Source: a bacterium (GTDB lineage Bacteria; Hinthialibacterota; Hinthialibacteria; Hinthialibacterales; Hinthialibacteraceae). Taken from it: a stretch of 64,000 nucleotides of DNA. A program made the position numbers and the translations under genes. The notes beneath the pieces are model-generated. The model searched no databases. It saw only the letters and a list, made by a program, of their open reading frames with translations, and was not told the origin of the DNA. The stretch lies in assembly GCA_963662285.2 (NCBI GenBank), contig CAXXMV010000002.1:96001-160000 (forward strand), written 5' to 3'. Position 1 is the stretch's first letter, and each line of letters begins with the position of its first letter. This document shows, piece by piece, positions 25,951 through 42,895 of this stretch.

Positions 25951-26985
25951 ATGAGTGACTGGTTTGAAGATTTACCCATCGAAGTAGTTAAAGGTGGAAA
26001 GAAGAAGGAACTTCCCGATTTCAAATTCAATTGGCGCAGCGGCGGCATAATCGGCTTGATTGCTCTTTTTCTACTGGTGCTTATAGTCTTCCAACCCTGG
26101 TTTACGGTTGGTCCGGGAGAGGTCGGCGTGGTGTTGCGCCTGGGGAAAATGAACCGTATTGTTTCTCCGGGATTTCATTTCCGGCTGCCCCGCCCGATAG
26201 AAACAGTCTATACCCCGAATATTAGATTACAAAGACGGGTAGAAATTGGTTTTCGCTCGAATTCCAATAATCCTGGAGCAACTTCTAGAGACGTCGCGGC
26301 TGAGAGCATCATGCTGACCGGGGATGAGAATATCATTGTAGCCAAGATGATTATTCAATACAAAATCGCCGATCCGGCAAAATACCTTTTCAATATTTAT
26401 GATGTAGAAAATACTCTGACCGATATCTCTGAAGCAGCTTTGCGCCAGGTAATAGGCGACTATCCCATTGAATCGGCGCTTACCGGCCAGCGCGATCAGC
26501 TGCAAATTGAAATCCAAAAAATTATTGAAGAAATCTCAGACCAATATGAAATTGGATTGTTAATTGATCAGGTGCAATTGCAAGAGACTCATGCTCCTGA
26601 TCCGGTTGAACCTGCTTTTGCGGATGTGTTCAACGCCCGTGAGGATCAAGCCCGAATAGAACGTGAAGCCGAGGCCTACCAGAATAAAGAAATGCCAAAG
26701 GCGGAAGGCGCTGTCAGAAAAATTCTTCAGGAAGCAGCATCCTATAGCGCTGAGCGGATCGCCAAATCAAAAGGTGAAGTCGAACGGTTCTCTGCAATCC
26801 TGAAAGAGTATGAGAATGCGCCTCAGGTGACCCGGCAAAGGCTTTATCTGGAAACTATGGAGAAAGTTCTGGCGAATAAATCGAAAGTCATTGTCGATTC
26901 CGATGACGGGCTGCTTAAATTGCTGAATGTGACTCCGAACGACCTGGGTTTACCTACGTCGTTGGATAGAAAGGAGTCAAACTGA
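25951..26985 (+). CDS. hflK: FtsH modulator HflK
   Basis: SPFH domain, MLTGDENI, AFADV..ARED, RQRLYLETMEKVL. Confidence 0.95.
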   Translation: MSDWFEDLPIEVVKGGKKKELPDFKFNWRSGGIIGLIALFLLVLIVFQPWFTVGPGEVGVVLRLGKMNRIVSPGFHFRLPRPIETVYTPNIRLQRRVEIGFRSNSNNPGATSRDVAAESIMLTGDENIIVAKMIIQYKIADPAKYLFNIYDVENTLTDISEAALRQVIGDYPIESALTGQRDQLQIEIQKIIEEISDQYEIGLLIDQVQLQETHAPDPVEPAFADVFNAREDQARIEREAEAYQNKEMPKAEGAVRKILQEAASYSAERIAKSKGEVERFSAILKEYENAPQVTRQRLYLETMEKVLANKSKVIVDSDDGLLKLLNVTPNDLGLPTSLDRKESN

Positions 26986-28061
26986 TGAAATCACAAATTG
27001 GTTTAATTATCGCGGGAGTTGTTGCTCTCTTTATATTTATTGTCATCATCTCTTCAGCCTTTATTATCACTGAGGTCGATCAAGCCATTATTATTCAATT
27101 GGGTAGACCGGTTCGGGTTATAGCTGGAGATTCAGCCTTTACCGATAAGGTTGAATTGAAAAAAAGCGTTGAAGAATATTCCAGCCAAAGCAATTCAAAT
27201 GTTAAACTGAGTTTTGGCGCCGGGCTTTATTTCAAAATTCCCTTTTTGCAGCAAATAGAATATTTCGAGGATCGCATCCTCGAGTCAGACGCAGATCCGG
27301 CCCGCATTACAACAGGCGACCAGAAGAGAATTGTGGTCGATAGCTTTGCGCGTTGGCATATTGCCAATCCGCTTAAGTTCAGGCAGACGCTGGTTAACAT
27401 GCCGACCGCCTTGAACCGTCTGGATAATATTATCCGATCCGAACTGCGTAACCGTTTGGGTGAATGCAATTTCATTGAAATTATTCGCAGCACCAATCAA
27501 TTGCTGGATACGAAAATTGAAATTCCCGAACAAAAGAAGGTCTCAATTAAAATCGGGCGCAGCAAGATCATGGAAGATGTGACCAAGGTGTGCCGGAAAA
27601 CCGCCAAAGACTTCGGCATCTATATAATCGATGTTCGCATCAAGCGGGCTGATCCCCCTGAACAGAATATGAATGCCATTTATGAAAATATGAAAGCGGA
27701 GCGCGACAGGATCGCGGAAAAATACCGTGCGGAAGGGGCGCGCCAGGCGACATTTATTACGGCTAATACGGATCGTCAGGTTAAAATCATGCGCGCCGAA
27801 GCTGAAAGAGACGCCCAGATCATTATGGGGCAGGCGGATGCTGAAGCAGCCCGCATTTATGCCAGAGGATTCATCAAAGACGTCACGGGACAACCACCAA
27901 TTCAAATTCATGGTTTTGAAAGCGACCCTGAATTTTTCCGGTTTACCCGGTCCCTGGAAGCGCTTGAAAAATCGATTGATAACAATACTTCGCTGATTCT
28001 TAATACTAATAGCGATCTTTTACAGTTTATGAAAAGCCCGATGAGCGGGATCAACAATTAA
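26985..28061 (+). CDS. hflC: FtsH modulator HflC
   Basis: GLYFKIPF, VDSFARWHI, DVRIKRAD, MKAER.RIA..YRAEG, DPEFF.FTRSLEA. Confidence 0.95.
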   Translation: MKSQIGLIIAGVVALFIFIVIISSAFIITEVDQAIIIQLGRPVRVIAGDSAFTDKVELKKSVEEYSSQSNSNVKLSFGAGLYFKIPFLQQIEYFEDRILESDADPARITTGDQKRIVVDSFARWHIANPLKFRQTLVNMPTALNRLDNIIRSELRNRLGECNFIEIIRSTNQLLDTKIEIPEQKKVSIKIGRSKIMEDVTKVCRKTAKDFGIYIIDVRIKRADPPEQNMNAIYENMKAERDRIAEKYRAEGARQATFITANTDRQVKIMRAEAERDAQIIMGQADAEAARIYARGFIKDVTGQPPIQIHGFESDPEFFRFTRSLEALEKSIDNNTSLILNTNSDLLQFMKSPMSGINN

Positions 28062-28097
28062 TTCGTTTTTGTAATAATTTTGCAATAAAAGAGTTGA

Positions 28098-28454
28098 TTA
28101 TGCAGGCGGTTGAATTTTTTCAACCGCCTCTTTTATTGTTTTATAAACCGGCGCCAGTTCTATAGCGCAGGTTAATTCCAGTAGATACCGGATTCTATCT
28201 GAAGGATTTACAAAGGCGAACGCGTTTTTGTCCTTTTTGCTGATATTCTGAATGTGTTTGATGATAACGCCAATATCATGGCTGTTTAGTAGACGGGTTT
28301 CAGATAAATCAAGCAAGCAATAGTAGTTTTTCTTCTTTGCCATCTTGCCAAAAAGCTTTTCCAGCTTATTAATATCATTTGGATTCGATGAACCTTTGAT
28401 TTTTATAACCGTTACATTCCCAAGTTCTTCAGTTTCGAGCAGAAATCCTTCCAT
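28098..28454 (-). CDS. STAS domain protein (anti-sigma factor antagonist-like)
   Basis: VIKIKG, LLDLSETRLLNSHDIGVII, FVNPSDRIRYLLELT pattern. Confidence 0.75.
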   Translation of the reverse strand: MEGFLLETEELGNVTVIKIKGSSNPNDINKLEKLFGKMAKKKNYYCLLDLSETRLLNSHDIGVIIKHIQNISKKDKNAFAFVNPSDRIRYLLELTCAIELAPVYKTIKEAVEKIQPPA

Positions 28455-28632
28455 AATAACTAAATCCTAGTTTGATTAATTCGTAATATGGCCGATAATA
28501 AAAAATATTGTTTACTGGCCGTTACCTACATTCGTATTACTATAGCGGAAGTCTATTATATTTCTTATTGTTATTGAAAAGAAATTTTATTCCCGTTTAT
28601 TATACATTAAATATTACTATGAGGGACAATTA

Positions 28633-29823
28633 ATGAATAGCACTTTATGGAGAAGCCTCTTTGTTGGATATATATGCGTGATCTGCTCAGCGCAAATATC
28701 TATTGCCGCTGAGAGAGGGATATGGGTAACGCGCTACGATTTTAAGACCGCCTCAGATATTACCAAAATAGCTGAAAATGTGCGTTATCTGGGAGCGACG
28801 CAGGTCTTTTTTCAAGTTCGGGGCAACGCAACAGTATGTTATCCCTCAAACATCGAGCCTTGGGCATGGGAAATGACCGGTGATTCTCCAAAAACCATTG
28901 GCAATGATCCCGGTTGGGATCCTCTTGCAACTGCATTGGAAGAAATACAAAAAAACGGCATGGAATTACATGCCTGGTTAAATGTCTTTCCCGGTTGGAG
29001 AGGCGCCATCCCCGCCCCTCGTGGAACCAGTCATCCCTGGGTTAATCATCGGTCATGGTTTATGATCGATCATCGCGGCGTTCTGCTTAGACCCTCTAGC
29101 GCTTTCTATTCCTTTATGTCTCCCGGTCATCCTCAGGTTAGAACTTATATAGCCTCAGTTTTTGGAGAAATCGCGAAAAAGTATCCTAAACTTGATGGAA
29201 TTCACATGGATTATGTACGTTATCCGGGGCGTAATGAGGTGGGACGCCTTAGAGACTTCTCTTACGATACAGAAAGCGTTAAGGCTTTTCAGCGCCAATA
29301 TGGCAAGAAGCCCCATTTTGATCAACCTGAATGGCAAAGGTTCAAGTGTGAACAAGTAAACGCCACTATAAAATCTATCCGCGAAGCTATTCGCCTCTCT
29401 TCGCCCACAATAGAATTATCCGCAACCTGTTTTGCTAACATCGATTCGGCTACAGAAGAAAAAGGCCAGGATCCAAGGGATTGGTTTGAAAAGGGTCTGG
29501 TCGACTGGGTAATGCCAATGGCGTATGAAAGAGATTCTAAAACACTGGTTTCACGATTAGAGAAATGGAATGAATTTTTTGATCCCAAATGGCGAAAACA
29601 GATGCTTGTAGGCTTAAATGTCGATTTTAATAAGGAATCCGAGATTCGGAGTCAATTGAGTTCTGTTCAGCAACAGAATTATGGAGGAGTGGCGGTTTTT
29701 GCGTATAATTCTTTATTCCCGAATCATAAATCTAATAATAAAGCGATAATGATTCGTGATCTGTGGCATGAAGAACAACTCAAAGATCTATTACGCAAAC
29801 CATCGGCGCCATCAATAGAATAG
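28633..29823 (+). CDS. GHL10 (DUF187, YddW/DigH-like) glycoside hydrolase
   Basis: RGIWV, VFFQVRG, WDPL, MELHAW, DGIHMDYVRYP, MPMAY. Confidence 0.88.
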   Translation: MNSTLWRSLFVGYICVICSAQISIAAERGIWVTRYDFKTASDITKIAENVRYLGATQVFFQVRGNATVCYPSNIEPWAWEMTGDSPKTIGNDPGWDPLATALEEIQKNGMELHAWLNVFPGWRGAIPAPRGTSHPWVNHRSWFMIDHRGVLLRPSSAFYSFMSPGHPQVRTYIASVFGEIAKKYPKLDGIHMDYVRYPGRNEVGRLRDFSYDTESVKAFQRQYGKKPHFDQPEWQRFKCEQVNATIKSIREAIRLSSPTIELSATCFANIDSATEEKGQDPRDWFEKGLVDWVMPMAYERDSKTLVSRLEKWNEFFDPKWRKQMLVGLNVDFNKESEIRSQLSSVQQQNYGGVAVFAYNSLFPNHKSNNKAIMIRDLWHEEQLKDLLRKPSAPSIE

Positions 29824-29929
29824 AGCGAACCTCTATATCAACATCATAATCCGTCTGCTATTTTGACGCACCAGGTTTTATCTATCGATCTAAATAAAAC
29901 CAATTAAAAAGCCTATCCAATAAACTATA

Positions 29930-31474
29930 TTGAAATTTTGTCGATATATATTGTATACAGCGATATATTACAGGGAAAAGTGCGCCCGGATTTCAAATGC
30001 GTATGCTCGGATTATGTTATTTAATAAGAAAATAAACAAAATTGTTTACGCCATATTTCTGTTGGCTGCGGGAATCGCAACCACCGGTTTTGCACTGTCT
30101 CCCAAAACATGGATTCAGGATATATCAAAGTTCTGGTCTCGCACCACGCCGAGCGTCGAAAATGTAACTTTTTGGGATTTTGAAAAAGAGGAAATGCGGG
30201 GTCTGCGCACATTTTTTTACACTATCCCTAAAGAACGGGTAAACCGTATGGTTGATCTGCGCCTGCATAATAAAATGGCGCAGTTTCTTTCTTATATCTG
30301 CCGTGATGTTATAACTTTAGACGATATAGAAGACATCTCCTTAAAAAAAATCGCTGAAGAGAAAATGACGCAGATAATCGATGAATGGAAATTAACCGGC
30401 CAGATTAACCCCAATACTCTTTTTTCTTCTCCTTATGGAAAAGAGGATCCAAGACCATTTATTGATATTGATATTTTAGTTCTTATCGAACGCATTCATT
30501 ACGATCAAGTCTGGCGGGGAGACAACAAACGCCTGGTCGTCGGCATCAGCGCCGTAGCTTTTGAGATGGACTTCGGAACCCCGGTTTATCAAGACAGAGT
30601 AATGGTTGAATCTCCCTGGTTTGGAGAAACAGGAAACTATGACAAAGCCGAACACGCCGCATTACTGCAAGTAGCCGATGCCATGGGGCAGCAGTTACAG
30701 ATTTTAGCTTCGAAGATTAATAGCACGCATGACGAACTGGAGCGGCAAAAAATCGCCGCCCAAAAAGAACAACAGGCTCTGTTTCTCGCTCAAGTTAAAG
30801 AAGAGGCTCTTTCTATTGAACAACTGGTTGAAAAAGCCGAAGAACTTGTCTCACAGGGAGAAGGACCAGAATCCATATTGCAGTCATTGCAAACCAATGC
30901 CAATGAGATTAAACCTTTACTAAAGAAAAAAACCAAACAAGAAGCCTTGTTCCCTTCATCAAAAAAGAAAACCCTTAAAACTGAGCCTAAAGTATCTAAA
31001 AATCTCTCCCCGGAGGATTTAGAAAACCGCAGGTTACTATCTCAATCCTTACAGGATAATCTACAAGCATTAGACGACTGGAAAACAGCAGAGGCGGAAA
31101 GAATTAAACAAGCAGCAATTGCAGCGCAACCATCATTAAAACAAGAGGGCGTAAATATTCCAGGTAAACCACAAGACGCCCAATCACTGGCTCAGAACGC
31201 TATACCTAGTGATCAATTAATCGGCCTCCCCAAAATCGATTATCCCAAAGGTAATTTATTTGACCGGGGCTGGCTGCTTCCATCACAACGCGCTCTGAAA
31301 CCCGGCTCTGTACCCATAATTCCAAACTCCATGACGATTGACCGCCCCGATATAGAGTCAACTGCCATACCACAAAACATCCCGGACTCATTCAAAAAAC
31401 TGCAAACGGGAAAGATGCCTCCTTTACCTACATCGGCTGACATCAAATCGTCCACTTCAGCAAATGCAAACTGA
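29930..31474 (+). CDS. Exported hypothetical protein: CsgG/TolB-N-like domain, coiled coil, Pro-rich tail (real start likely MLFNKK at about 30014)
   Basis: Signal-like segment, alpha/beta domain ending VGISAVAFEMDFGTPVY, long E/Q/K helix. Confidence 0.6.
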   Translation: MKFCRYILYTAIYYREKCARISNAYARIMLFNKKINKIVYAIFLLAAGIATTGFALSPKTWIQDISKFWSRTTPSVENVTFWDFEKEEMRGLRTFFYTIPKERVNRMVDLRLHNKMAQFLSYICRDVITLDDIEDISLKKIAEEKMTQIIDEWKLTGQINPNTLFSSPYGKEDPRPFIDIDILVLIERIHYDQVWRGDNKRLVVGISAVAFEMDFGTPVYQDRVMVESPWFGETGNYDKAEHAALLQVADAMGQQLQILASKINSTHDELERQKIAAQKEQQALFLAQVKEEALSIEQLVEKAEELVSQGEGPESILQSLQTNANEIKPLLKKKTKQEALFPSSKKKTLKTEPKVSKNLSPEDLENRRLLSQSLQDNLQALDDWKTAEAERIKQAAIAAQPSLKQEGVNIPGKPQDAQSLAQNAIPSDQLIGLPKIDYPKGNLFDRGWLLPSQRALKPGSVPIIPNSMTIDRPDIESTAIPQNIPDSFKKLQTGKMPPLPTSADIKSSTSANAN

Positions 31475-33763: not shown

Positions 33764-33849
33764 GGCAAAATGAACGTTAATATGTAAAGCTCAAAAAAAG
33801 GCATCCATTTTGTAACACATTAACAGTAGCTCACCCCAGGAGGGTAAAG

Positions 33850-36800
33850 ATGTTAGAAGCGCGAAAAATAACATTATTTTTTTCTATTGCATTACTGGTT
33901 ATCTGCAACGTAAATGCAGACCCTATCCAAAAGATAGACTTTTCAAAAGCTGCTTTTGATCATGAAGCCTTTTTCTCTATCCCGGTAACAGGTTATGAAT
34001 CCCCGGATTCTTCAGCTGGCGTTTTCACTACTGGCGACTCTTATGAAGAAGGCTACCGCATCGATCTTAATCCGGGAGAAGCCATTCTCCTCGCCAGCAA
34101 GAATCCTGTTCAGACGAAGGGTAATCCAATTGTTATTTCTTTGGATTACAGCATTTTGGATTCAACTACTGACCAACCCCAGGTTGCGGTTGTCGGTCTG
34201 AATGCTCCCGGTGGAGCGCCTGACGGGCAATTGGGATATTTTTATTCTTCAAAAGCGCAAACTGAGGCATCTAAAAATCTATTGCACTTGGTTTATACGC
34301 CGCCATCCGGATCATTTCTGCCAGCGGTTCAGGTCTCTTTAGACAAAGAAGCCGAAGCCTCATGCACCATTGCGGTTTATTCACTAGCCGTTTATCCATT
34401 TGTTCCGCAAAATTTACAAGAGACAACCAGCTATGATTTCGCCCATCCCATTGATCCTCTGGTATCAAATGTGAATGGCGACGCTGGTATTGTTCTGCAA
34501 GACAGCGATAAAGAAGCCTTGGTTCTATCTACAGCAGGAAACGGGGAAGCAGCCAATATTCAATTAGACGCCACTAACGGCGACCTGACCGAAAAGATTG
34601 TTACGGTCTCTTTCGACGTTGCCCGTAACGCAGGACAAGATGGATACACCGCAGCTGTTTTAATACATGCCATGCAGACTATGGGCTTGTTCGTTAAAAA
34701 CAGCGCCCTTCCCGAAGAACAACAAGCAGCTAATTTGCTAATGGGCGCCAATTTAACCAAGTACCGCTCTCCCACCTATCTCTACCTGCAAAATGGCGGG
34801 GGACAAACCGGTTCTGAAACAATCATCGATAATGTAAAAGTTTACTCTTATTCAATGGACTCTATCCAGGGATTACCCATTGTCGAAACCAGCGATTTGC
34901 TGCCGCGCACTCTGGCCGCAGCAGTCGTCATGCCCAAAACGCTCTTCAGCGGAAGTAAAAGTTCAATCTCCATAACCAGCTTAAACAGTGATAACCAATC
35001 TCCGGTGATTCTTCCCTTCTCTGTTTCTCTTAAAAATGACGGTCAGGAGATTCAACTGGCCAAGGGAAGCACCAACAGCCGGGGTTTTGCTTCCAAGACT
35101 TTTTCTGTACCCCAGATTAATGTCGGCGCCTGGAATGTTGAAGTAAAAAGCGGCCAGAATGTTATTCTCAAAGGTCAAGCAGCAGTAAAAGATACCGGCG
35201 TGCTGATCATTAATACAGACAAACCGATCTATAAACCGGGACAAAAAATCCAAGGCCGCGTTCTTCTTATGAATAACGCTCTGCAACCTCTGCCAGGCGA
35301 GATTGTTCTATCTATAGCCGACGCCAAGGGAATAAAAATTCACAAAGAGACTCTCACCGCCAACCAATACGGCGTTGGCTCTTTTGAACTTCCCCTGGCC
35401 ACCGAACTGAATTTTGGAACTTGGAAAATATCAGCCACATCCGGCAGCGAATCAAAATCAGAATTGGATGTCGAAGTCGATAAATACGTCCTTCCCGCTT
35501 TTGAGGTCAATGTGAATTTAGAGAAGGACTGGTTCCTGGTTGACGAACATATCACAGGAACAGTCGATAGCAAATATTTCTTCGGCAAAACCGTTAAAGG
35601 CAAAGTTCATATCTCTGCACTGCGTTACGTCTCTACCTGGGAAGAATACGCCACGCTTGATGGAACCCTCGAAGACGGCATCTATGCCTTCGATCTTCCA
35701 GCCGTGGAATACATCGCCGGAACCCAAAGCGCCGAAGGCGCCGGAACGGTTCAAATTAAAGTGACCGTCACCGATGATACCGGCAAAGAAGAATCAACCG
35801 ATTTCATCGCCTCTATCGTCGATGCTGGCGTAATGCTCAAAATAATTCCTGAATCTCCCGTGGTTAAACCGGGATTAAACCAGCAAATCATTATTATCTC
35901 AGAAACCCCCGGCGGGGCGCCTCTTTCTTTATCCACTCAAATTGAAATTAATTTCATGAATGAATCTGGTGATGATATTTCAACCATTAAGGATACCGTC
36001 GAAACCATTAACGGCATGGCGCTTTACAGCTATGACGCACCAGCGAAAACCCAAATTGTTGTCATTACATCTATCGCCACGGTGGATGGCAATAAAAAAG
36101 AAGAGACCATGCTGCAGTACGCCGCTTACTCGCCTGGCGCCAATTATATCCATCTGCGCCAAAAAACGGATGGCGTGTTAAAAGCAGGCGACCAGGCTGT
36201 CTTCGAGCTATTGTCAACCAACCCGGGTACGCTCTTCTACGATGTCTATGGAGATGGCAGGACGCTCTTCTCCAACGCAACTGAAACCAACGAAATTCGT
36301 TTCACCGTAACACCCGACATGAGTCCGAAAGCCAAAGTCGTGGCCTACATGATTCAACCCAACAATGAAATATCGGCTGACGTCCTGCCCTTTGACGTAG
36401 AACTGGCGCCATCCGCATCTTTAGATGTGGCCTTCGACGCAGAAGAAGTAGAACCGGGCGACGCAGTTGGTTTGAACATTACCAGCGATGGTCAAGCCAT
36501 GGTCGGCGTCTCTATAGTAGATGAATCAGTCTTTGCTTTAGTCAAAGGCCGCTTGAATCTAAAAAATGTTTTCGCCGAACTCGAACGCATTTTCATGGAG
36601 CCGCAAGCGGAAGTTCATGCCAATCCCGACGCGCCTTGGATGGATAGCCCCGTCACCGGCGGCAAAGGCGCTGATGATATCTTTCAGGAAAATAACCTCC
36701 AGATATTAACAACCACAGAACTGAATGCGCCCAAAGCCAAAAAATTGGATCCTTGGCTGTTATGGAACAATCAAAGACTGCAAAAGAATATGCCTTTTCC

Positions 36801-38982
36801 TATGCCTGTTTTTGATGACAATTTAGAGGCCGTCGCAGGAGGCGCCGAAGATGATGCTTATCAAGAACCGGATCGCGTACGAACCTTCTTCCCCGAAACC
36901 TGGTTATGGCTTCCAGAATTATTAACCGATGAAAACGGCCTGGCCTCATTAGACCTCACCGCGCCGGATAACATCACCACCTGGAAACTCCAAGCCGTTT
37001 CCACCAACAACAATGGCCTAGGTATTGCAAGCGGTTCATTAAGGGTCTTCCAGGATTTCTTCGCCGAACCAGACCTGCCCTACTCAGTTATTCGCGGAGA
37101 TGAATTTCCACTGCGCGTCCGTATCTTTAATTACGTCGATGAAGAACAAACCATCCGCGTAACTCTCGAAAACCCCGAAACGCTCGGCTTCGATGGAGAA
37201 GCAGTTCAGAATGTGGTTATCCCCGGACAGAGCGCCGGATCGGTCAGTTTTACCCTCAAACCAACCAAAGTCGGCGTATTCCCGGTTTCGCTGATCGCTC
37301 AATCAACCAAACGCGCCGACGCCATTCGCAAGGATCTTCTTGTCGAACCGGAAGGCATGAGACGCGAACAAGTGCATAACGGAACCTTGAAAGATGCGAC
37401 GGAAAGAATAATCCCCTTGTCCTTCCCTGATATTATTTTCGAGGAAAAACCAGTTGATGGCGACAGTACATTGCCTCCGATTGAACCGCCATTATTTGAA
37501 ATTGTTCCGGATTCTGAAACCCTGCGCGTAGCCATCACGCCAAGCCTGATCGGACAATCCATTGACGGACTCGACGACCTGCTGGGTATGCCCTATGGCT
37601 GCGGCGAGCAGAACATGATCTTCCTGGCGCCGGATATCGAAGTCCTACGCTACCTAAAAGCCACCGCCCAATTAGCGCCCGAAATCAGAGCCAAGGTAGA
37701 GACTTTCATAACCACTGGTTATCAGAGAGAACTAACCTATCGCCGCGACGATGGTTCCTTCTCCGCCTTCGGCCAGCAGGATGATGAAGGCAGCCTCTGG
37801 TTAACTTCATTCGTCCTTTCCACTTTCAGCAATGCCCGTGAAGTAAGACACATCGACGAAACAGTTCTATCCAGCGCCGCTGATTGGATCACCAGCCATC
37901 AAAACGCCGATGGCTCCTGGGATCCAGTAGGCTTCGTAATTCATAGCGAATTGGTTGGCGGTATGGAAGGGAATCTTGCTCTCAGCGCTTATGTAACCAT
38001 TGCGCTACTCGAGTATGGCCAGGCAGATTCAACAGCTATGCAAAAAGCCATCGCGTATCTGGAAAGTAATATCACCAATGAAAAAGCCGATTCCTATGTA
38101 CTATCCCAAATCGCCTACGCCCTGACCAAAGCGGATAGCCCGCAAGCTGGCGCCGCAATTGATCAGTTACTGGATTCAGCCATAGTAGACGGCAACGGTA
38201 TGCACTGGGAACCTCATTCCTTAGAGTCCACTGGTTATGCAACCCTATCTCTGATACTGCAAAATCCCATTCAGGCGCAATCCGCCCTGCAATGGATCGC
38301 GTCCCAACGCAATGGCTTGGGAGGATACGGCAGCACCCAGGATACAGTGGTCGCTTTCAAAGCCATGACCGCAGCCGCCTCAGAACAAAGCCGTGATTTG
38401 AACGCCCAAATCGATGTTATCGTAAACGGCGAAACCGTTCATGCTTTCACCGTCAATAAAGAAAACTTCGATGTTCTTCAGTCATTAGAGTTGCCTCCTG
38501 CTGAAGAAATAACGTTAAAAATGACCGGAACCGGAACCGTCATGTATCAAGCAGTTCACGGCTATAACATCCCGGCGCAATCAGAACCAATCGGCAACGA
38601 TATGATCTTGAAAGTTACTTATTCTTCTGAACATGTCGCAGTGGATGATATCGTCGATGTAAACGTCACGGTGGATTACATGGGATTTCAAAAGGAAACC
38701 GGCATGGCCATCGTCGATGTATCCATCCCCACCGGATTCGGCATAGTCCAGGACTCCATTGAAAAAGTCAAGTCGATGGAAATAATCAAACGAGTCGAAC
38801 AAGCTGGCCGTAAGATGATCTTCTACATCGATCATTTCACCAGCGGAGAAACATTGGAATTTTCCTTCCAGGTCAACGCCCTGTTCCCCGTTAAAGCAGA
38901 TGGTGGAATCCATTCCGCCTATCTGTATTACAACGCGGAAAAACGCGCCGAGACCGGAGGAACCAAAATCCAGGTTGATTAA
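33850..38982 (+). CDS. Secreted alpha-2-macroglobulin/thioester-containing protein of metazoan CD109/TEP type
   Basis: TDKPIYKPGQ, YVLPAFEV, RTFFPETWLW, PDNITTW, LPYSVIRG, MPYGCGEQNM, GYQRELTYRRDDGSFSAFG, VIHSEL, STQDTVVA, MAIVDVSIPTGF. Confidence 0.93.
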   Translation: MLEARKITLFFSIALLVICNVNADPIQKIDFSKAAFDHEAFFSIPVTGYESPDSSAGVFTTGDSYEEGYRIDLNPGEAILLASKNPVQTKGNPIVISLDYSILDSTTDQPQVAVVGLNAPGGAPDGQLGYFYSSKAQTEASKNLLHLVYTPPSGSFLPAVQVSLDKEAEASCTIAVYSLAVYPFVPQNLQETTSYDFAHPIDPLVSNVNGDAGIVLQDSDKEALVLSTAGNGEAANIQLDATNGDLTEKIVTVSFDVARNAGQDGYTAAVLIHAMQTMGLFVKNSALPEEQQAANLLMGANLTKYRSPTYLYLQNGGGQTGSETIIDNVKVYSYSMDSIQGLPIVETSDLLPRTLAAAVVMPKTLFSGSKSSISITSLNSDNQSPVILPFSVSLKNDGQEIQLAKGSTNSRGFASKTFSVPQINVGAWNVEVKSGQNVILKGQAAVKDTGVLIINTDKPIYKPGQKIQGRVLLMNNALQPLPGEIVLSIADAKGIKIHKETLTANQYGVGSFELPLATELNFGTWKISATSGSESKSELDVEVDKYVLPAFEVNVNLEKDWFLVDEHITGTVDSKYFFGKTVKGKVHISALRYVSTWEEYATLDGTLEDGIYAFDLPAVEYIAGTQSAEGAGTVQIKVTVTDDTGKEESTDFIASIVDAGVMLKIIPESPVVKPGLNQQIIIISETPGGAPLSLSTQIEINFMNESGDDISTIKDTVETINGMALYSYDAPAKTQIVVITSIATVDGNKKEETMLQYAAYSPGANYIHLRQKTDGVLKAGDQAVFELLSTNPGTLFYDVYGDGRTLFSNATETNEIRFTVTPDMSPKAKVVAYMIQPNNEISADVLPFDVELAPSASLDVAFDAEEVEPGDAVGLNITSDGQAMVGVSIVDESVFALVKGRLNLKNVFAELERIFMEPQAEVHANPDAPWMDSPVTGGKGADDIFQENNLQILTTTELNAPKAKKLDPWLLWNNQRLQKNMPFPMPVFDDNLEAVAGGAEDDAYQEPDRVRTFFPETWLWLPELLTDENGLASLDLTAPDNITTWKLQAVSTNNNGLGIASGSLRVFQDFFAEPDLPYSVIRGDEFPLRVRIFNYVDEEQTIRVTLENPETLGFDGEAVQNVVIPGQSAGSVSFTLKPTKVGVFPVSLIAQSTKRADAIRKDLLVEPEGMRREQVHNGTLKDATERIIPLSFPDIIFEEKPVDGDSTLPPIEPPLFEIVPDSETLRVAITPSLIGQSIDGLDDLLGMPYGCGEQNMIFLAPDIEVLRYLKATAQLAPEIRAKVETFITTGYQRELTYRRDDGSFSAFGQQDDEGSLWLTSFVLSTFSNAREVRHIDETVLSSAADWITSHQNADGSWDPVGFVIHSELVGGMEGNLALSAYVTIALLEYGQADSTAMQKAIAYLESNITNEKADSYVLSQIAYALTKADSPQAGAAIDQLLDSAIVDGNGMHWEPHSLESTGYATLSLILQNPIQAQSALQWIASQRNGLGGYGSTQDTVVAFKAMTAAASEQSRDLNAQIDVIVNGETVHAFTVNKENFDVLQSLELPPAEEITLKMTGTGTVMYQAVHGYNIPAQSEPIGNDMILKVTYSSEHVAVDDIVDVNVTVDYMGFQKETGMAIVDVSIPTGFGIVQDSIEKVKSMEIIKRVEQAGRKMIFYIDHFTSGETLEFSFQVNALFPVKADGGIHSAYLYYNAEKRAETGGTKIQVD

Positions 38983-39011: not shown

Positions 39012-39043
39012 AACGGGACGCCATTCGGCGTCCCGTTGTTTTT
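39012..39043 (+). terminator. Intrinsic terminator
   Basis: AACGGGACGCC-ATTC-GGCGTCCCGTT then GTTTTT. Confidence 0.85.
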
Positions 39044-39109
39044 ATGGAGTATTTATAGAACCGCTCTAGACCTCAATATCTCCCTATAAATCAGTATAAT
39101 TATTAGGTT

Positions 39110-41149: not shown

Positions 41150-42895
41150 ATGAAACTAAATAATCCTAAAATCGGTTTTCCCGCTATTTATGCCTATCTG
41201 TTGTTTTTCATAATAATATATGGAAATTACTGCATAGCTCAAGAGAATAAAGAGAAAAGCGTTACTCCGATCTATGTAAATCAAATCGGTTATCTTCCCG
41301 CCGATCAGAAAATCGCCCTTGTTTCTGCACCGACGGGGATATCTTTCGAACTTATCAACCAAAATTTGAAAAAATCTGTATTAAAAGGCATGTTGAACAT
41401 AGCCGAGCCAGGCGATGCCGCTAGCGGTTCAGATTTATGGCAGGCCGATTTCAGCGTTATCAGCGCAACCGGGCAATATATCCTCCAGATTCCCGGATTG
41501 GGAGATTCTTATTCGTTCCAGATACAAGATAACCTATATACAGAACTGATTAAACAATCCATAGCGGTTTTCTATCTTCATAGAAGCAGCTCCGCCATTG
41601 GACAGGCCTATGCCGGTAAATGGGACAGAGAAGCCTTTCACTTGTCAGATGGCCTCATACACACAGCCACCGCCATAACGGATATTCCACACAATGCCAC
41701 AGGCGGTTGGTTCGATGGCAGTGATTATGGTAAATACTCCGTCAGCGGTATTTATTCAGCTGGAGTCTTATTGATGCTTCATGAACATTTTCCAATTCAA
41801 TTCGGAGATGGAACCCTGCTTATTCCAGAACAGGCTAATAGCATTCCAGATATATTGGATGAAATTCGGTGGGAAATTGATTTTCTACTCCGTATGCAGG
41901 ACGCCAATGGAAGCGTCCATCATAAATTAACCTCTTTAGACCCCCCCAAACCCGAACTCCCCAATAAAAACGATTCTCCCAGATACGTCTTTCCAAATTC
42001 AACCTCCGCTACAGCTGGCGCATGCGCCTTATTCGCCAAAGCATCCAGATTATATTCCGTTCATGACGCAACCTATGCAGAGATTTGCAAAAACAGCGCC
42101 CTTTCCGCCTGGAATTACCTCCAAACGCATCCATCCGATAATGGTTTCGTTAATCCCGGTAATGTTAGAACCAAAACGTTCCTCGATGCCGATGATTCCG
42201 ATGAAAGATTTTGGGCGGCCATAGAACTTTTTATCACAACAGGAGACCAGCAATATCAAAGCACAGCCTTATCCATTGAAAATAAAAGAGTTACTTTACT
42301 TTCAGCTTCTGGCTATTGGGGAAATGTAATGCCTTTAGCTGTGGGCGCCATTTTGAAAGCGACCCCTGAGATGTTCGACGAAAAACTACTCCAGACAATC
42401 AGCAAAGACCTCATTTCTTTAAGCACTATTATCTCTGATGCGATTAATGCTGACGGATTCAAATTAAGCCTGAAAGAGGGAGATTTTGCCTGGGGTTCTA
42501 ATGGAGCTTTGCTGGAAAACGCTATGATTCTTTGTTTGGCGGATATTTATAAATCCAACCCGGTTTACCGGCAAGGCGCCAAAGATCAATTACACGCCGT
42601 ACTTGGCCGAAATCCACTTTCGATGTGTTACGTAACCGGATTCGGCAGCCAGTCTCCCAAGCATCCATATCATTTGATTTCAATGGCCGACAAAATTGAA
42701 GAACCTCTTCCCGGACTTATTGTAGGAGGCCCTAATCAGTTTCTGGGAGACAGCGCCGTGAAGAAAATATTCTCCAAAACCGCCGCACCCGCCACAATAT
42801 ATCTCGATTCAGCGGAAAGCTATTCTTCTAACGAAACAGATCTGACCTGGAACGCGGTACTAGCCTATGTCGCTACGTATATATCTTCGAAATAA
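41150..42895 (+). CDS. Glycoside hydrolase family 9 with N-terminal CelD Ig domain
   Basis: YVNQIGYLP, GGWFDGSDYGKY, PDILDEIRWE, LGRNP...YVTGFG, YSSNETDLTWNA. Confidence 0.9.
   Translation: MKLNNPKIGFPAIYAYLLFFIIIYGNYCIAQENKEKSVTPIYVNQIGYLPADQKIALVSAPTGISFELINQNLKKSVLKGMLNIAEPGDAASGSDLWQADFSVISATGQYILQIPGLGDSYSFQIQDNLYTELIKQSIAVFYLHRSSSAIGQAYAGKWDREAFHLSDGLIHTATAITDIPHNATGGWFDGSDYGKYSVSGIYSAGVLLMLHEHFPIQFGDGTLLIPEQANSIPDILDEIRWEIDFLLRMQDANGSVHHKLTSLDPPKPELPNKNDSPRYVFPNSTSATAGACALFAKASRLYSVHDATYAEICKNSALSAWNYLQTHPSDNGFVNPGNVRTKTFLDADDSDERFWAAIELFITTGDQQYQSTALSIENKRVTLLSASGYWGNVMPLAVGAILKATPEMFDEKLLQTISKDLISLSTIISDAINADGFKLSLKEGDFAWGSNGALLENAMILCLADIYKSNPVYRQGAKDQLHAVLGRNPLSMCYVTGFGSQSPKHPYHLISMADKIEEPLPGLIVGGPNQFLGDSAVKKIFSKTAAPATIYLDSAESYSSNETDLTWNAVLAYVATYISSK

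Follow-up and report, generated by a model that had tools for sequence, protein, structure and literature searches.

A CD109-like thioester protein encoded in a bacterium of the family Hinthialibacteraceae, and its relatives among free-living bacteria and archaea

This study examined a 64,000-nucleotide stretch of DNA (hereafter, the window), C2:96001-160000 of the contig CAXXMV010000002.1 in the assembly GCA_963662285.2 from a bacterium of the family Hinthialibacteraceae (phylum Hinthialibacterota), and in particular one gene in it that encodes a thioester protein of the alpha-2-macroglobulin (A2M) superfamily. The contig has 1,848,149 bases, and the assembly comprises 7.29 Mb in 8 contigs, with a completeness of 92.5% and a contamination of 3.5%. 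The gene occupies 33850..38982 on the forward (+) strand, as do all of its features given below, and is an intact open reading frame with an ATG start that encodes 1710 amino acids. The assembly carries three genes of the A2M superfamily, which are referred to here as type A (this gene), type B and YfhM-type.

The signals around the type-A gene are those of a bacterial gene for an exported protein. A Shine-Dalgarno-like AGGAGG, read from the sequence, lies at 33838..33843, 6 nt 5' of the ATG. The protein begins with MLEARK, followed by a hydrophobic core and then VNA|DP, and this N-terminus reads as a signal of the signal-peptidase-I type; the predicted Sec signal peptide, assigned by eye, covers residues 1-23 (33850..33918) and would be cut after VNA. 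The N-termini of the full-length orthologues, also judged by eye, look Sec-signal-like as well. The initial annotation had described a Sec signal with no obvious lipobox, and this description holds: the residues L-V-I precede Cys19, the resulting LVIC, judged by eye, does not fit the lipobox consensus, and Cys19 is not kept in the orthologue N-termini compared. The whole protein has three Cys (C19, C172 and C1251), so the mature form can contain at most one disulphide pair, because one of the three sits inside the signal peptide. No stretch of 18 or more hydrophobic or small residues occurs anywhere in the 1710 residues, and therefore there is no C-terminal membrane anchor of the glycosylphosphatidylinositol (GPI) type. 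The gene was also thought to have its own terminator, and a strong terminator-like hairpin does lie 30 nt 3' of the stop codon (39012-39037, or 39012..39047 with the T-run; 11 pairs, 8 of them G-C; tail GTTTTTATGG).

Pfam recognises six domains in the order that is canonical for the A2M family: MG2 (residues 454-543; PF01835, 3.2e-20) and MG3 (545-603; PF17791, 2.4e-12), which together span 35209..35658; the bait-region domain A2M_BRD (772-897; 36163..36540; PF07703, 1.2e-23); A2M, that is, MG7 (1017-1106; 36898..37167; PF00207, 1.9e-27); TED_complement, the thioester domain (TED; 1233-1507; 37546..38370; PF07678, 3e-71); and A2M_recep, the C-terminal MG8 or receptor-binding-type domain (1616-1701; 38695..38952; PF07677, 5.9e-15). 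A TED_complement match at 3e-71 combined with five ordered A2M-family domains is far above chance. None of the Pfam bMG models matches the protein, and NCBIfam returned only sub-threshold squalene-cyclase matches (22-29 bits against cut-offs of 323-851).

The motif GCGEQ (residues 1250-1254; 37597..37611) provides Cys1251 and Gln1254, and a His, His1365 (codon 37942..37944), follows 114 residues past Cys1251 in the segment WDPVGFVIHSELVGG (residues 1357-1371). Both had been reported in the initial annotation and are located exactly as described there. The other five motifs that it quoted are likewise present, making seven of seven with consistent coordinates: FPETWLW (1014-1020), PDNITTW (1039-1045), LPYSVIRG (1076-1083), GYQRELTY (1290-1297) and STQDTVVA (1495-1502). 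GCGEQ and the His are invariant in all 18 aligned sequences of the order. In the alignment used for the phylogeny described below, the His column holds His in 35/35 type-A, 4/4 type-B and 7/8 animal rows. His1365 is aligned with the catalytic His of human CD109, in VIHSELQGG, and with an Asn of A2M. Excerpts of PMC9156758 ascribe thioester chemistry of this His-assisted, hydroxyl-reactive kind to A2ML1, C3 and C4B.

Between the bait-region domain and MG7, the linker of residues 898-1016 contains a bait-like stretch. Residues 931-990 have a mean identity of 0.37-0.41 to 17 orthologues, vs 0.6-0.8 in the flanks, and this Cys-free stretch sits where C3a would be. Such low conservation is as expected for a bait, and proteolytic cleavage would be predicted there. 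We annotate a putative bait region at residues ~925-1005 (36622..36864), a variable Cys-free linker before MG7 whose proposed function is read from its position.

The N-terminal part of the protein has no counterpart in Pfam, in which residues 1-450 gave no match. An AlphaFold2 model of residues 24-350 showed two beta domains with high confidence (pLDDT 91.6, pTM 0.90), and Foldseek compared them best with the carbohydrate-binding-module-like (CBM-like) domains of GH101, with the tandem CBM22-1/CBM22-2 of the xylanase 4xup, and with SGBP-B (7kwb), a surface glycan-binding protein of Bacteroides, at E ~1e-8. On this basis, residues 24-340 (33919..34869) are described as a tandem beta-sandwich, CBM-like module. 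Few proteins have this module: among 1.84 billion representatives, 71 are matched at E<=0.001 and 25 at E<=1e-10, and most of the top-scoring matches other than orthologues of the type-A protein are secreted proteins with the module at the extreme C-terminus. It recurs in at least eight other secreted proteins of the same genome, and the six of these that were scanned include proteins with C-type lectin, Laminin_G_3, Big_9, FGE-sulfatase or M4 peptidase domains. At the loci L043 (C6:1736184-1739534), L044 and L045, secreted C-type lectin proteins are joined to the tandem module; that of L043 has four Lectin_C stretches and Laminin_G_3, and that of L045 also has an FGE-sulfatase domain. The module may represent an undescribed family of binding or anchoring domains. 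Type-A relatives in other phyla bear Laminin_G_3, Laminin_G_2 or dockerin domains in its place, and the presence of Laminin_G_3 and dockerin domains fits extracellular targeting. The lineage-specific N-terminal module sets this gene apart within the type-A family.

Comparison with solved structures placed the type-A protein nearest to animal proteins. The PDB sequence matches were led by human CD109 (414 bits over the full length), followed by A2M (391), A2ML1 (330), C3 (283), C4 (275) and mosquito TEP1 (268), and no bacterial chain was among the best 60 of the 77 PDB chains matched. With the TED alone as the query, CD109 was again the best match (2.4e-61), and all 54 matches were animal thioester-containing proteins (TEPs) or squalene cyclases. 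The initial annotation had proposed an AlphaFold comparison with CD109, and a model of residues 1006-1710, built from an alignment of 18 sequences (pLDDT 73.1, pTM 0.53), was indeed found to fit native CD109 best (E 3.9e-46; Foldseek query TM-score, TMq, 0.64; 31% identity over 703 columns). Native A2ML1 (0.65), A2M (0.64) and C3 were matched by the same model with TMq 0.61-0.65, vs only 0.36-0.46 for activated C3b, CD109 and A2M. No bacterial A2M was among the 49 structural matches listed for this model.

Human CD109 (PDB 8s3o, 9fx2) has, like the type-A protein, GCGEQNM, a His within VIHSEL.GG, a bait-type linker and MG8, and it has no anaphylatoxin domain. The two differ in that CD109 lacks the 320-residue N-terminal CBM-like module, and in that CD109 is anchored, by GPI, whereas the type-A protein has no C-terminal hydrophobic tail and has only three Cys. 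CD109 is described as a cell-surface protein in passages of PMC12927315. A2ML1, according to excerpts of PMC9156758, is a monomeric inhibitor that needs covalent capture and uses a His-assisted thioester, as the type-A protein would, and its native fold is matched at TMq 0.65. A2M itself has an Asn where the type-A protein has its His, and is tetrameric.

C3/C4 and insect TEP1 share with the type-A protein GCGEQ, the catalytic His and the MG/CUB/TED/MG8 core; however, the type-A protein is further from them than from CD109 or A2M, and it lacks the ANATO and NTR domains. The initial annotation had spoken of an animal-type complement protein. Its distinction between a metazoan type and the YfhM/ECAM type is supported, since TED_complement, A2M_recep and MG3 are present, bMG domains are absent and the PDB relatives are animal proteins. 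The label 'complement' is not appropriate, because at E<=0.01 Pfam finds neither an anaphylatoxin (ANATO) nor an NTR/C345C domain in the type-A protein; the resemblance is to monomeric inhibitors of the CD109/A2ML1 kind. Membership in complement proper was rejected on the same grounds.

The contrast that the initial annotation had drawn with the typical bacterial A2M, a YfhM-type protein paired with PBP1C, is visible within this single genome. The YfhM-type gene lies on contig C6 and encodes a protein of 1894 residues with GCVEQ, in which bMG3, bMG5, bMG6 and bMG10 are all matched. The very next gene on that strand is pbpC (TIGR02073, 574 bits vs a cut-off of 494; the pair at C6:1178320-1186601). 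All eight PDB matches of the YfhM-type protein at E<=1e-5 are Salmonella or E. coli proteins, the full-length ones (4u48, 5a42) at 323-327 bits. Against the type-A protein it scores 53 bits with 21% identity. The type I bacterial A2Ms, E. coli YfhM/ECAM and Salmonella A2M, are members of the superfamily to which the type-A protein belongs, have CxEQ and are protease traps; unlike the type-A protein, the YfhM-type protein of this genome has bMG domains and linkage to pbpC, and the YfhM-type rows stand as the outgroup in the tree and have no aligned His, with a gap at the His column in 4/4. As had been noted, type A has no pbpC neighbour: none occurs among the 10 neighbouring open reading frames scanned, and the pbpC of the genome is the one on contig C6. 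Membership of the type-A protein in the YfhM type was rejected, given the absence of bMG matches, the 21% identity to the genome's own YfhM-type protein and the differing PDB relatives.

The third gene, type B (C1:44408-49981; L010:4409-9982, +), encodes 1857 residues with the motif MPYGCFEQ and keeps the His. Its Pfam set is the same as that of type A, to which it is 31% identical over the C-terminal 721 residues (330 bits), and its best PDB matches are CD109 (251 bits) and A2M (227 bits). In sequence, human CD109 is nearer to the type-A protein than type B or the YfhM-type protein of the same genome is. Directly upstream of type B are genes for an extracytoplasmic function (ECF) sigma factor (L010:1853-2506) and a zf-HC2/TPR anti-sigma-like protein (L010:2503-4149). 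At three other loci examined, type B is preceded by the anti-sigma gene in 3/3 and by the sigma gene in 2/3, the third locus being cut at its edge. This suggests that type B is under an envelope-stress-type regulon.

A survey of 40 related genomes showed type A in every genome of the order that was included. Matches with 41-66% identity were found in 25/25 genomes of the order, some of them split at contig ends, comprising 19/19 genomes of the same family and 6/6 genomes of two other families. Full-length proteins of the same family are 51-66% identical, and the longest ones in the two other families are 43-47% identical. Nine genomes from other families of the class gave only type-B-like or YfhM-like matches to the type-A query, and six more distant genomes gave no match.

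Type A is also not an oddity of one bacterium, as its initial description might have implied. A protein search with residues 1000-1710, in which the best 8000 candidates by shared words were scored, gave 4428 matches among them at E<=0.001. Proteins of about 50% identity come from Planctomycetota, from metagenome-assembled genomes (MAGs) labelled Omnitrophota, from Methanosarcinales and from ANME-2 archaea, and a protein of Ca. Hinthialibacter antarcticus is 58% identical. The closest homologues with a name assign the source organism to the OLB16/Hinthialibacterota lineage, and one same-family orthologue shows no difference, over the region compared, from the protein named for Ca. Hinthialibacter antarcticus. 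Many of the relatives are already labelled 'alpha-2-macroglobulin family' or 'CD109 antigen' in the databases. A DNA-pattern scan for P[YF]GCGEQNM, with one genome per GTDB species, identified at least 112 loci. The listed ones include 55 in Chloroflexota, 21 in Planctomycetota, 16 in Methanobacteriota, 6 in Actinomycetota, 3 in Acidobacteriota, 1 each in Hadarchaeota, Hydrothermarchaeota and Thermomicrobiota, and 8 with no named phylum; the isolates Methanolobus halotolerans, Methanolobus sp. WCC5 and Methanococcoides seepicolus are among them. Among the 101 listed loci with enough downstream sequence, 100 have the His (93 by pattern and 7 by eye), and the sole locus without it appears frameshifted. 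A hydrophobic tail at the C-terminus is seen in 5 of 143 relatives and a lipobox-like start in 8, and the remainder look soluble. These data show that type A is an ordinary member of a large, uncharacterised family across free-living bacteria and archaea.

Part of this family has been noticed before. Excerpts of Makarova et al. (2021, PMC8416519) report TED proteins with CxEQ in 24 archaeal genomes, and describe some Methanomicrobia, e.g. Methanolobus psychrophilus, as close to bacterial A2M homologues. Our comparison places the proteins of Methanolobus/Methanosarcinales at ~49% identity to residues 1000-1710 of the type-A protein and in the same clade. In those excerpts, the animal-like type is not separated from the YfhM type, and the His and the affinity to CD109 go unmentioned. 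The words 'macroglobulin' and 'thioester' have no occurrence in the main text of the paper on Hinthialibacterota (PMC9324843).

The phylogeny that the initial annotation had proposed was inferred with IQ-TREE in a careful search under LG+C20+F+G4 by posterior mean site frequencies (PMSF), from 51 rows and 696 columns covering MG7 to the C-terminus. The alignment combined 35 prokaryotic type-A proteins, 4 type-B proteins, 4 YfhM-type proteins and 8 animal units. The latter came from five gene models, all fusions of the CD109/insect-TEP kind, that were cut by coordinates: two from a frog (Hyla), four from Anopheles (A. cruzii and A. epiroticus), and one each from an ostracod (Cyprideis) and a copepod (Lepeophtheirus). 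C3, C4, C5, A2M and early-branching animals were outside this sampling. With the YfhM type as the outgroup, type B branches first (100/100), and type A and the animal TEPs unite in a clade (100/99) that excludes the YfhM type; the type-A protein of the window thus lies outside the YfhM clade. The animal TEPs are monophyletic (100/100) and adjoin one MAG protein labelled 'bacterium' (P0135; 1651 residues, motif MPSGCGEQNM) with support of 100/99. P0135 may be genuinely close to the animal TEPs, or long-branch attraction may account for its placement as their sister. Archaeal and bacterial lineages form a polytomy at the base of the clade of type A and animals, and long branches are flagged. Holding all 35 prokaryotic type-A rows together was not rejected (delta lnL 16.7, p-AU 0.076). 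Judging from these sequences, no other prokaryotic type stands as near to the sampled animal TEPs as type A, and a tree of this sampling, without C3, A2M and early-branching animals, is compatible with either a nested or a sister placement of the animals, hence with either direction of any transfer, and with both the ancestral and the acquired origin that the initial annotation had considered (approximately unbiased test, p 0.076).

Such a gene might be suspected of being an animal contaminant, of lying on a chimera or of having passed very recently from an animal to a bacterium, given that its product scores higher against human CD109 (414 bits) than against its paralogues (330 and 53 bits), and that its guanine and cytosine (GC) content is slightly higher than the genome mean. 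Measured against 2903 stretches of equal length across the genome, that GC value (0.478) falls at the 92nd percentile and within 1.3 standard deviations of the mean. Against an artefact there also stand the 1.85-Mb contig with bacterial genes all round, so that the chimera feared in the initial annotation can be set aside; the Shine-Dalgarno sequence, signal peptide and terminator, and the absence of introns; and the three Cys of the protein, animal TEPs being rich in disulphides. Further, the orthologues in 25/25 genomes of the order, at 41-66% identity, make a recent acquisition from an animal unlikely. The artefact is effectively refuted.

Little in the neighbourhood hints at a function. 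The upstream gene P0146 (31610..33523, +) encodes a membrane protein that has multiple passes and, towards its C-terminus, TPR repeats (Pfam, residues 408-626), and it is found upstream and on the same strand at 6/10 orthologous loci. Its N-terminal part has no Pfam match; by language-model features, the N-terminal 405 residues resemble GT-C glycosyltransferases of the PMT_2/TMTC type, with a score of 0.98 that serves only as a lead. The gene before it (P0147; 29930..31474, +) encodes a 514-residue protein of unknown family, without a Pfam or PADLOC family, and occurs at 5/10 orthologous loci. The other neighbours are ordinary bacterial genes, among them two SPFH/Band_7 genes, a GHL10 hydrolase-like gene and a GH9 cellulase gene with CelD_N (25951-28061, 28633-29823, 41150-42895). 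Rfam and tRNA scans of the 64-kb window found nothing. The cumulative GC skew peaks near 30 kb (~28000-30000) and falls steadily to the end of the window, and the peak may mark a strand-bias or replication switch point.

We consider the type-A protein to be probably a secreted, protease-triggered covalent trap of the CD109/A2ML1/A2M type, directed to glycans by its CBM-like module. This reading, reached by analogy, draws on the fact that the best PDB sequence matches (CD109, A2M and A2ML1) are protease inhibitors; on the bait-like, Cys-free segment of low conservation at the right position; on the full A2M-family domain order with strong E-values; and on GCGEQ and the CD109-aligned His, which are strictly conserved in the order and in other phyla. 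The signal peptide without a membrane anchor suggests that the trap is exported, and it is probably monomeric. In the resting state, the Cys1251-Gln1254 thioester would be buried between the TED and MG8. A protease that cuts the exposed bait (residues ~925-1005) would cause the protein to rearrange, whereupon His1365 would attack the thioester to give an acyl-imidazole, which in turn would acylate a reachable amine or hydroxyl, so that the protease or a nearby glycan would be covalently tied. The CBM-like pair would place the trap on polysaccharide, either the surface layer of the cell itself or plant or algal detritus being digested, and a trap so placed would guard the envelope and the secreted enzymes against proteases that are foreign or out of control. 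Sections of PMC9324843 portray the lineage as free-living and diderm, degrading polysaccharides and proteins with many secreted hydrolases and proteases.

Several observations weigh against this trap. No protease gene or other informative partner is conserved beside the type-A gene at the 10 orthologous loci. The C-terminal model is of moderate confidence (pTM 0.53). In a diderm, a signal peptide indicates export to the periplasm only, and passage beyond the outer membrane is assumed here. The likeness of the N-terminal module to CBMs is one of fold alone (~12% identity, TMq ~0.3), no sugar-binding residues were identified in it, and its language-model neighbours, which are CBM families, all score below 0.9 and are leads only. 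Finally, insect TEPs with the same motifs are opsonins whose protease inhibition is undemonstrated, according to excerpts of PMC9156758, and the motifs therefore do not separate a trap from a tag.

The tag is in fact the reading that had been offered initially, namely a complement-like opsonin that, once activated, would be deposited covalently on the glycan surface of whatever attacks, be it a predatory bacterium, a protist or a phage particle, and would mark or immobilise it. The strict conservation of the hydroxyl-permitting catalytic His is in keeping with it, recognition of foreign glycans could fall to the CBM-like module, and the excerpts of PMC9156758 regard insect TEPs that bear these motifs as probably complement-like in action; however, the absence of ANATO and NTR domains applies here as well, no convertase-like, receptor-like or lytic partner is conserved among the scanned neighbours at the 10 loci, PADLOC assigns the protein to no defence family, a free-living bacterium has no known way of reading the tag, and the closest solved relatives are inhibitors. 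We regard this role as unlikely. The same His-assisted hydroxyl reactivity, which suits sugars, would also serve a covalent adhesin, whose thioester would glue the cell or its enzymes to polysaccharide detritus selected by the CBM-like module. Thioester-domain adhesins of Gram-positive cocci are an analogue in principle. The sharing of the module with at least eight other secreted proteins of the genome, with lectin, Laminin_G_3 and other domains in the six scanned, would agree with this proposal, as would the life of the lineage on polysaccharides (sections of PMC9324843). On the other hand, the MG ring, the bait-region domain, the bait-like stretch and the MG8 shield are all kept, which a simple adhesin would not need, and the protein lacks a cell anchor; an adhesin is improbable.

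Concerning the origin of the family, the reviews and structural papers searched, among them PMC9156758 and PMC5764988, know bacterial A2Ms from Gram-negative colonisers only, in the ECAM/YfhM and MagD types, and these types are considered there to be probably derived from host animals and structurally distinct from the animal proteins. It is conceivable, if doubtful, that type-A stock gave rise to the animal TEPs (CD109, A2M and ultimately C3/C4) through an ancient transfer from a prokaryote to the animal stem, and that the prokaryotic members were perhaps already glycan-aimed, protease-triggered capture devices with swappable lectin-like modules. Such a history is allowed by the two successive prokaryote-only outgroups, type B and then the YfhM type, by the span of type A over free-living Bacteria and Archaea in at least eight named phyla and in its own lineage, and by the single branch that the sampled animals form among the type-A lineages. 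If true, the transfer would have run opposite to the direction usually assumed, in which bacteria acquired their A2Ms from host animals.

Type A constitutes a third prokaryotic type beside ECAM/YfhM and MagD, one that is CD109/A2M-like in sequence and fold and has kept the His. In the literature searched, no animal-like, His-bearing clade of prokaryotic TEPs is described, and the supplements of PMC8416519 may list members; the family as such is known already, as it is annotated in databases and its archaeal members are noted in passing in the excerpts of PMC8416519. Type A is common in free-living microbes of sediment and water, including cultured methanogens, and groups with the animal TEPs and not with YfhM. 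The protein would also be a simple model, with two Cys when mature, a bacterial signal peptide and no known glycosylation. The added module is unusual, with 71 representatives only, and the interest of this gene lies mainly in the bearing of its family on the origin of the animal thioester proteins, which becomes testable with a fuller tree.

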